Part shown: positions 38,055 through 38,206 of the stretch, piece after piece | How positions within the stretch are numbered: the stretch's first letter is position 1 | How the letters are laid out: each line of letters begins with the position of its first letter | NCBI GenBank assembly: GCA_018780035.1 | Contig: JADMKE010000003.1 | Span: 274,753-338,752 of the forward strand | Source: Candidatus Sericytochromatia bacterium | GTDB lineage: Bacteria; Cyanobacteriota; Sericytochromatia; UBA7694 | DNA: 64,000 nucleotides | Reading direction: 5' to 3' | Notes under the pieces: generated by a model | The model's input: only the letters and a program-made list of their open reading frames with translations | Databases searched by the model: none | What the model was told of the DNA's origin: nothing | Position numbers and translations under genes: made by a program

Positions 38055-38206
38055 TCCGGTGTAACTCAGTTGGTAGAGTGGCCGCCTTTTAAGTGCTTCT
38101 TGTTGAGCCTCCAGGCGAAACTTAGAAAGCACTTATGCTATGCGAAGCGGAGATGCGCAGGTTGCTTCGCAACACGCACTGCGTGCTACAAACCCTGTCA
38201 CCGGAA
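38055..38206 (+). tRNA. tRNA-like gene (Lys, anticodon TTT) with a 54-nt insertion at anticodon-loop 37/38 and a 25-nt insertion at T-loop 55/56
   Basis: Acceptor TCCGGTG/CACCGGA. D-arm ACTC-AGTTGGTA-GAGT. 'GCCGC-CTTTTA' then the 54-nt hairpin-forming insert (aagtgcttct...agaaagcactt), then 'AGCGGA'. T-stem GCAGG ... TT[gcttcgcaacacgcactgcgtgcta]CAAAC ... CCTGT. The 5' half is homologous to tRNA-Arg(TCT) at 38315. Confidence 0.5.

Follow-up and report, generated by a model that had tools for sequence, protein, structure and literature searches.

Small structured inserts that behave as mobile units interrupt tRNA genes beside rsr in Sericytochromatia

The subject of this analysis is a tRNA-Lys(UUU) gene at positions 38055..38206 (forward strand, +) of a 64-kb stretch of DNA, hereafter the window, from a Sericytochromatia/Blackallbacteria bacterium. 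Two inserts interrupt the gene: a block of 54 nt in the anticodon loop and a block of 25 nt in the T-loop. The exons alone make a 73-nt cloverleaf. The 54-nt block is, on well-supported comparative grounds, one copy of a family of small structured intervening elements, which we call anticodon-loop (AC) elements. It is equally well supported that this family and that of the T-loop inserts (T-inserts) behave as mobile units, with precise gain and loss, switching of hosts, conservation above that of the host, and free-standing or inverted copies. Very probably, the inserts are small structured elements, mobile or at least transferred between sites, and specific to the loops of tRNA-like genes in arrays linked to rsr, the gene for an orthologue of Ro60.

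The Lys gene belongs to a tandem array of eight tRNA genes in 760 nt (37809-38570, +). Five of these are uninterrupted and were recognised with ARAGORN and Rfam, all on the + strand: tRNA-Ser(GCU) (37809-37895), tRNA-Asn(GUU) (37899-37971), tRNA-Ala(UGC) (37978-38050), tRNA-Arg(UCU) (38314-38388) and tRNA-Arg(CCG) (38391-38466). Besides the Lys gene, the interrupted members are tRNA-Arg(ACG) (38211..38308, +), with a T-loop insert at 38266-38290, and tRNA-Ile(GAU) (38470..38570, +), with a T-loop insert at 38524-38548. The Rfam tRNA model found the Arg(ACG) gene at 44.8 bits with a 30-nt insertion in the T-loop, and matched part of a gene at 38474-38526. ARAGORN missed all three. Thus, the inserts hide genuine tRNA genes from standard annotation.

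When the units of the array were aligned with MAFFT, the Lys gene alone had the 54-nt anticodon-loop block, and the 25-nt T-loop block was common to the Lys, Arg(ACG) and Ile(GAU) genes. The alignment bears out a first-pass annotation, made from the letters of the window, that had described two separate insertions in the Lys gene, the 54-nt one adjoining the anticodon. As it stands this gene is not called by ARAGORN; deletion of both blocks in silico gave a clean 73-nt tRNA-Lys(ttt). In the window and in related arrays, deletion of the AC element left a canonical 7-nt anticodon loop and a tRNA detectable with ARAGORN. Almost all interrupted genes were called as tRNAs once their T-inserts had been removed in silico.

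The comparison drew on the rsr loci of relatives, which carry L numbers below. The closest genomes are metagenome-assembled genomes (MAGs) of Candidatus Sericytochromatia/Blackallbacteria whose Rsr proteins are 93-98% identical to that of the window. A further 15 loci were taken via more distant Rsr homologues (56-97% identity). The data cover 64 kb of this genome and up to ~13 kb per relative; the relatives' loci were picked by Rsr, and insert copies away from rsr loci are outside this view.

The position of the AC element in the window Lys gene is ambiguous, since AA lies on both sides. The registers 38091-38144 (36/37), 38092-38145 (37/38) and 38093-38146 (38/39) are equivalent. The first-pass annotation had seen the ambiguity and placed the insert at, or one nucleotide from, the canonical 37/38 site. 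The junction is fixed by one Ser allele, which occurs without an insert in L033 (gtttgct followed directly by aaacag) and with 53 nt added at that point in L004. Hence, the insertion site is between U36 and A37, and not at 37/38. With its intron option, ARAGORN described the L033/L034 orthologues as tRNA-Lys(ttt) i(36,54). The AC hosts have U36 and A37 because all of them read ANN codons (Lys-UUU, Ser-GCU, Asn-GUU).

In the U36/A37 register the window AC element spans 38091..38144 (+), supported by its fold, by covariation and by a match to the covariance model R2 (89.2 bits, E = 3.6e-24). It forms the long interrupted hairpin that the first-pass annotation had drawn, with a free energy of -19.0 kcal/mol (z = -3.5); none of 200 shuffled sequences was as stable. 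Helix P1 pairs 38091-38100 with 38124-38134 and has one bulged A. P2 pairs 38102-38104 with 38119-38121, tandem G.A pairs follow (38105-06 and 38117-18), and P3 pairs 38107-09 with 38114-16. The tail holds a mini-hairpin, P4 (38136-38 with 38142-44).

The AC element is no product of chance: a covariance model built from its homologues found 11 AC copies in nine related loci, with E-values from 1e-10 to 1e-24. Homologous inserts interrupt Lys(UUU) genes (L001, L033/L034, L035), Ser(GCU) genes (L002, L003, L004), a second class-II gene in L004, and Asn(GUU)-like genes (L022, L035). Family members measure 51-73 nt. They share a P1 of ~10 bp with its bulged A, a P2 of 3 bp, the symmetric tandem G.A, a P3 of 3 bp closed by a loop of 3-5 nt, and a tail with P4. 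The same architecture was obtained from MAFFT with RNAalifold and, separately, from the covariance model. Across the 11 copies, 93.5% of the cells are paired, a figure somewhat inflated because the covariance model is fitted to the structure, although the independent MAFFT/RNAalifold result agrees. Eleven pairs have changed on both sides (six in the insert and five in the anticodon stem); with ~7 independent AC-element lineages, such counts partly reflect shared ancestry. The covariation score was reached by none of 500 shuffles, and controls with slid alignments were 32-43% paired. P3 alone occurs as GCC/GGC, AAC/GUU, AUC/GAU and ACC/GGU. P4 ranges from 3 bp in the window to 9-10 bp in L022, L028 and L035, where its sequences are unrelated.

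Two further observations concern this loop. A Met(CAU)-like gene in L022 (3100-3250) has a 51-nt insert of unrelated sequence (CGCGCGGCTGTCCC...GGCTATGGC) at 36/37, plus a T-insert. In the minimum free energy fold of the window gene, the tail of the AC insert pairs with the T-insert over 8 bp (UGCGAAGC with GCUUCGCA). We rejected this pairing as functional: it is not kept in L022, and it is impossible in L001 and L033, both of which have no Lys T-insert.

The second family is that of the T-inserts. The one in the Lys gene (38164..38188, +; model R1, 59.2 bits) is 25 nt long and lies between U55 and C56. Its two mini-hairpins are UUGC-UUC-GCAA, in which U54 and U55 take part, and GCAC-UGC-GUGC. 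In total, 21 copies of 24-26 nt from seven loci, all between U55 and C56, align with this pair of hairpins. Hairpin 1 has the form UUGC-UNC-GCAA built on U54 and U55, with a U-A pair changed to C-G in three genes. Hairpin 2 has 4 bp, three of which covary (GCAC/GUGC, GUGC/GCAC, GCGU/ACGC, GUCC/GGAC, GCC/GGC). Pairing is found in 94.5% of the cells, and none of 500 shuffles reached the covariation score. The number of T-inserts per array is zero in L024, L029, L030 and L033/L034, two in L001, three in the window and six in L022. In L028, nine of the 12 array tRNAs carry one, and the flanking T-loop residues are still canonical (UU before the insert, CRA after it). One copy sits outside tRNA genes proper, in the T-loop of a YrlA-like RNA of L026 (5559-5600). 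Model R1 places it exactly between GGUU and CG, the equivalent of tRNA position 55/56.

Variants of the T-loop arrangement were also seen. A tRNA-Met(CAU) gene in L035 (629-725) has a different insert of 21 nt (CGGGGTACCCCGTAGAGGGTA) between G53 and U54, which looks like a third kind of loop insert. A tRNA-like gene of L026 with the anticodon AUG (3607-3735) has a 45-nt T-loop insert that consists of the usual element and an extra hairpin. In the Arg(ACG) gene of L001 (5792-5889), which bears a T-insert, the D-loop GG is AG (caatagata, against caatggata in the window). The uninterrupted array tRNA-Lys(UUU) of L028 (2073-2145) has the T-loop AUCGUUC, so that positions 54 and 58, usually U and A, would be A and U.

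Mobility is seen when the window, L001 and L033, whose Rsr proteins are 97-98% identical, are aligned together. Here, presence and absence of the 25-nt element are precise. The Asn T-insert occurs in L001 only, the Lys T-insert in the window only, and the Arg(ACG) T-insert in the window and L001, not L033. Between the window and L033, the AC inserts are identical at 53 of 54 positions whereas the Lys exons are 77% identical. One and the same Ser-type insert occurs in two Ser alleles, with differences in the anticodon stem no further than 3-6 nt from the junction. Therefore, any co-converted flank is no longer than a few nucleotides. In both families the same element is found in different host genes and alleles, and it is more conserved than the host exons. 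Finally, some copies stand alone. An intact AC element is located in a spacer of L028 (3585-3649, minus strand; model R2, 57.6 bits), and it has G.U pairs in its own sense strand. Model R1 found two T-inserts as an inverted pair in a spacer of L029 (796-834, -, and 885-917, +); a short GGC/GCC hairpin holds each of them in its loop. When models R1 and R2 were run over ~206 kb, copies were found in arrays or YrlA-like RNAs only, and both orientations occurred solely among the three solo copies.

The host genes are evidently constrained. The Lys stems of the window and L033 alleles differ by compensatory changes (A10-U25 versus G10-C25; G7-C66 versus A7-U66). Between L022 and L026 (Rsr 93% identical), Arg(CCG) shows ~4 differences in the 52 positions of its 5' exon and none in the anticodon arm; compensatory changes have replaced the second hairpin of its T-insert, and the spacers on either side are unalignable. 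The kept Lys stems and the constrained Arg(CCG) exons argue against dead genes. Comparison of orthologues also speaks against two readings raised in the first-pass annotation. An origin by duplication of the neighbouring Arg(TCT) gene is not borne out: the Lys exons share 88% identity with the uninterrupted array Lys(TTT) gene of L027 but only 77% with Arg(TCT). This interrupted Lys gene recurs in lineages with Rsr proteins 80-98% identical, and the AC insert is absent from the Lys(TTT) genes of the more distant arrays L027, L028 and L029. That annotation had taken absence of the insert from relatives as a sign of recent decay; with compensatory evolution of the insert where it is present, and with inserts 53/54 identical across strains whose exons are 77% identical, this too fails.

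How might such genes give tRNAs? The reading we favour, tentatively and on sequence evidence, is that the AC element may be a mobile intron-like intervening sequence, excised by an endonuclease and a ligase, that is, a protein-spliced bacterial tRNA mini-intron. The array would be transcribed as one precursor. Each AC element would fold alone (P1-P2-tandem G.A-P3 plus P4) and protrude from the anticodon loop, with five 5' loop nucleotides and A37-A38 remaining at the junction. A structure-specific endoribonuclease, not of the EndA type acting on a bulge-helix-bulge (BHB), would cut both ends of the element. A ligase of the RtcB type would then rejoin the halves to give a normal tRNA-Lys(UUU), with CCGCCUUUU joined to AAGCGGA. 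The element might spread by reverse splicing and subsequent reverse transcription, by homing with the help of a free-standing endonuclease, or through gene conversion over very short tracts.

We favour excision and religation because exons, anticodon loops and anticodon identities have been preserved while the inserts were turned over, and because arrays that are mostly interrupted still resemble sets of tRNAs. A third reason is that RtcB-type ligases are linked to Rsr/Y-RNA operons (functionally, according to PMC7790460) and to cyanobacterial tRNA arrays (PMC8421152). Archaea and metazoa use RtcB as their tRNA-splicing ligase, and in Anabaena its regulation is shared with that of a long tRNA array (PMC8421152). 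There is a precedent for spread: in Thermoproteales, similar small introns common to many tRNA genes are regarded as evidence of intron transposition (PMC4033280). A fuller proposal is conceivable, and we advance it with more reserve. Sericytochromatia might have small protein-dependent tRNA introns at 36/37 and 55/56, recognised through their own fold and not through a BHB, removed by an endonuclease and an RtcB-type ligase, and able to move among tRNA genes and into the tRNA-like domain of a Y RNA.

Several points weigh against splicing. The process is entirely inferred, and we know of no bacterial enzyme for it. A Pfam scan of 37 proteins encoded in the 64-kb window revealed neither an enzyme of tRNA splicing (endonuclease or RNA ligase) nor a reverse transcriptase or transposase. 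A BHB motif, in which 4 bp of helix part two 3-nt bulges, is absent at either junction of three AC elements and three T-inserts, with both geometries and all equivalent registers considered. The central helix had 1-3 of four pairs in all cases but one, and the lone case with 4/4 is unconserved and has no flanking helix. For the T-inserts, U replaces G53 in seven of 21 genes and C replaces U55 in three, which sits poorly with the restoration of a canonical T-arm. The T-insert of the L026 Y RNA is in a non-decoding molecule. Arrays free of inserts exist (L024, L029, L030), and the inserts are therefore dispensable. The solo copies in spacers, some of them inverted, imply that the fold is conserved independently of any exon that needs to be restored.

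Alternatively, the inserts might never be removed. The tRNA body would then serve as a scaffold for processing or stability, as in YrlA or transfer-messenger RNA (tmRNA), and the product would be a non-decoding RNA that works with the Rsr/Y-RNA ribonucleoprotein or another tRNA-binding factor. We regard such a retained functional module as unlikely, though it deserves weight. It needs no assumed splicing machinery, the insert folds are conserved by covariation, and the loss of G53 and U55 in some genes, like the T-insert of the L026 YrlA-like RNA, would suit it. The array and rsr share a strand and are less than 1 kb apart, the setting in which Y RNAs with tRNA-like domains occur (PMC4201824). 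Conversely, many rsr loci of the same clade have no inserts (L024, L029, L030, L032) or one kind only (L033/L034), and hence the inserts are not an obligate partner of Rsr. Relatives already have a YrlA-like RNA 3' of rsr. Strict maintenance of anticodon loops and identity would be unneeded in a scaffold, and precise gain and loss at 97-98% Rsr identity would be odd for a dedicated functional RNA. An apparent Rsr-binding motif in the insert (GNCGAAN0-1G, here GGCGAA) was rejected, since it consists of P3 and the G.A pair and covaries. We also discarded the Lys gene itself as a Y RNA: the gene has no match to RF02553, though it lies less than 4 kb from rsr on the same strand.

Selfish DNA would account for other features. 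The inserts might resemble repetitive extragenic palindromic (REP) elements or miniature inverted-repeat transposable elements (MITEs), moved in trans by a transposase or nuclease acting on hairpins in single-stranded DNA, settling in hairpin loops of dispensable tRNA genes and simply inactivating these; covariation would then keep the hairpins needed for mobility. The solo copies fit this view, both the intact AC element on the minus strand of the L028 spacer and the two oppositely oriented T-inserts of L029 in their hairpin loops. So do the precision of presence and absence, the complete lack of G.U pairs among ~160 cells of the two T-insert hairpins, and a possible 2-3-bp AA(G) repeat at AC junctions. 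P1 of the AC element forms an inverted repeat with a 10-nt tail outside it, and the AA(G) repeat is found in some copies and imperfect in others. Nonetheless, we consider this explanation improbable. Copies were found only in rsr-linked arrays and YrlA; the remainder of the 64-kb window and ~200 kb of flanking sequence from relatives had none. The T-insert has neither terminal inverted repeats nor a target duplication and, at 25 nt, would to our knowledge be smaller than any described transposon, autonomous or non-autonomous. AC helices, that of the inverted copy included, contain sense-strand G.U pairs, which are A.C mismatches on the other strand. The exons of interrupted genes are under purifying selection in places where neighbouring spacers are saturated, and the window encodes no transposase.

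That the element is a small ribozyme which cleaves or splices itself, or is what remains of a group I intron, is very improbable. In the window gene the last base of the 5' exon is U and that of the insert is G, and site 36/37 is used by some bacterial group I tRNA introns. The segment GA-[GCC..GGC]-GAA resembles the G8A9-stem II-G12A13A14 part of a hammerhead. A hammerhead-like core was nevertheless rejected: C3, A6 and the third stem are absent, and Ser-type copies differ in the flanking sequence. No Rfam ribozyme or intron family matched at E <= 10. The 54 nt are far under the ~100-nt catalytic core of group I introns (PMC4033280), as the first-pass annotation had argued. U36 precedes every AC copy, but the terminal G is unconserved: the window, Ser-type and L022 copies have it, those of L035 and L028 finish with U, and the second copy of L004 finishes with CU. 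No P1-like pairing with the 5' exon is conserved; the candidate, CUUUU with GAAAG, is not kept in Ser-type copies.

That the Lys gene is a decaying pseudogene with random insertions, or an assembly artefact, is barely credible and effectively already refuted by the comparative data: although ARAGORN does not call it and some MAG versions look chimeric (L003) or have a run of N at the repeat (L002), the same inserts recur at the same positions in independent assemblies from different samples, both inserts covary, the exons keep a perfect cloverleaf with compensatory strain differences, and assembly errors are unable to create such precise indels. In L003 (5800-5960) a T-insert bridges the 5' half of a Ser gene and a 3' end of Met type, and in L002 (3940-4040) the N-run begins inside a T-insert. 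These oddities probably reflect repeat-induced assembly collapse, with a real deletion possible, and neither locus was relied on for presence or absence.

The surroundings of the array have a common plan. In fully sampled loci, a conserved leader is followed by tRNA-Ser(GCU), by 0-14 further tRNAs in conserved order, and by rsr. This layout holds for L024 and L032 as well as for nearer relatives; L025, which is more distant, departs from it. Arrays of relatives contain 1-15 tRNA genes in shared order, and gene order and anticodon identity are kept across arrays with and without inserts. In the window, rsr (38635..40110, +; TROVE and vWA_Ro60 domains by Pfam, and homologues) lies directly 3' of the array, and the interrupted Lys gene ends 429 nt 5' of its start on the same strand. 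It is well supported that the host genes form a supernumerary, leader-controlled tRNA array directly 5' of rsr.

The leader of the window array (37469..37740, +) comprises a small open reading frame (ORF) and two strong hairpins, and is conserved in relatives. Its sequence is kept in L001-L004, L022, L024, L026 and L028-L030. The ORF (37469-37597) has a conserved core from 37505 and ends in ...LALPGYRQHP* in the window; the C-terminus (...KRNS...LPLPGYRQxx*) is kept in ten loci, down to 70% Rsr identity. Eight consecutive U follow the second hairpin (~37673-37728), which is long, and the leader folds with z = -5.8. Mutually exclusive pairings can be drawn 3' of the ORF, CCUGGAUACCGG with CCGGUCAUCCAGG versus UCUCCGGUCAUCC with GGAUGACCCGGAGA. 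The leader looks like a leader-peptide transcription attenuator that controls the tRNA array and rsr. A Y RNA at this conserved upstream element was dropped in favour of leader peptide and attenuator; the Y RNA sits 3' of rsr.

There, several relatives have a YrlA-like Y RNA that matches RF02553 over its full length, below the gathering threshold (E = 4e-6 to 2e-3): L022 5521-5645, L028 5552-5653, L029 4461-4576 and L004 7542-7654. The window and L033 have instead a shorter stem-loop RNA without a tRNA-like domain. In the window this Y-RNA-like molecule lies at 40137..40226 (+; alignment, fold z = -3.3), and its 5' segment (GCAGCGNAGAG...GUUACUUC) is common to the YrlA-like RNAs of relatives. 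In L025 (2650-4000), where Rsr identity is 63%, tandem Y-RNA-like stems (GGCAGCAGCGAAGAAAACGCTTACTTC...) are mixed with whole and fragmentary tRNA-like units. Array spacers are crowded with short palindromes of the types GCCGATGGCTGATAGCC / CATCAGCTATGAGCCATCAGCC and CCACCAGCTACTGGCCACCAGC, as in L022 (1990-3960), L028 (1960-3660) and L029 (830-880 and 2440-2480). The rest of the window is ordinary chromosome, with genes for UvrB, Ser/Thr kinases, two-component systems, LspA and aldehyde dehydrogenases. An adjacent gene pair at 59234-61044 (-) is matched by PADLOC to HEC-01, a candidate defence system, its A subunit an AAA_21 ATPase (E = 9e-91) and its B subunit a DUF4276 protein (E = 1e-65).

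Searches of wider collections returned no relatives of the inserts. Rfam gave only tRNA matches and noise, at E <= 10 for the region and at the gathering threshold for the whole window. Exact-pattern scans for both inserts found no match in viral contigs. The T-insert pattern, the only one scanned against metagenome contigs, gave 17 matches, all by chance and inside coding DNA. The insert region gave chance matches only in blastn searches of plasmids and phages. In the literature searched we found no description of such inserts in bacteria.

Some known systems are alike in part. Intervening sequences in bacterial 23S and 16S rRNA genes are also extra, non-coding loop hairpins in genes for structured RNAs, variable between operons and strains. 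They differ in having rRNA hosts, a size of usually at least 90 nt and one long helix, whereas the inserts here have tRNA hosts and short interrupted helices. RNase III cuts them out and the ends are not religated; in a tRNA, a cut left open in the anticodon loop would abolish function. Rickettsia palindromic elements and REP/REPIN sequences are, like the inserts, tiny, hairpin-forming and non-coding, occur in both orientations, and can lie within RNA or protein genes while the locus survives. They have tens to hundreds of dispersed copies, whereas copies here were found only in tRNA and YrlA loops of one locus, plus the three solo copies in the same arrays.

Reviews portray bacterial tRNA genes as structurally uniform, with group I and II introns as sole interruptions (PMC4033280). 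The group I introns of cyanobacterial tRNA-Leu(UAA) and tRNA-fMet share with the AC element the cyanobacterial phylum (in the broad sense), an anticodon-adjacent site, sporadic occurrence and mobility. They differ in their 200-300 nt and P1-P10 core; the AC element, with 54 nt and no Rfam match, has no conserved internal guide or terminal G. The mobile BHB introns of Thermoproteales tRNA genes (Fujishima et al. 2010, as summarised in PMC4033280) are alike in behaviour. These are under 100 nt and similar in sequence. They recur at fixed positions in many tRNA genes, some of which have several, also in loops beyond the anticodon loop, and they are patchy among close relatives. Unlike those archaeal introns, the bacterial elements have no BHB, occupy sites 36/37 and 55/56, have a multi-helix fold of their own, come without EndA in the window, and also occur in a Y RNA and solo. 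Y RNAs of the YrlA type (Chen et al. 2014, PMC4201824; RF02553) similarly lie less than 4 kb from rsr on the same strand and have a tRNA-like body. YrlA is, however, circularly permuted, with a terminal stem that carries an Rsr-binding motif, whereas the Lys gene is a collinear tRNA with inserts, and relatives have a separate YrlA-like RNA 3' of rsr. The cyanobacterial L-array (2021, PMC8421152) likewise consists of tandem same-strand supernumerary tRNAs with short spacers, strain-variable content and linkage to RNA-processing genes. In contrast to the present locus, short at eight genes and headed by a leader of the leader-peptide type, no small inserts are reported in it, and a linkage to rsr or TROVE is unmentioned in that paper (0 occurrences; PMC8421152).

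The locus described here thus holds two tiny structured insert families, at both tips of the tRNA L-shape, that are spreading into spare tRNAs and a Y RNA beside a Ro60 gene. If DNA elements, they would be among the smallest site-specific mobile elements known. If retained, they would make natural 'tRNA-scaffold' RNAs with new modules. If spliced, they would be the first bacterial tRNA introns that are neither group I nor group II, and would directly link tRNA splicing to the Rsr/Y-RNA/RtcB module of RNA repair. There would then be a new bacterial tRNA-splicing pathway, and its enzyme, to find. Such a pathway would be relevant to how protein-dependent tRNA splicing arose and to the roles of Rsr, Y RNA and RtcB in the handling of tRNAs.

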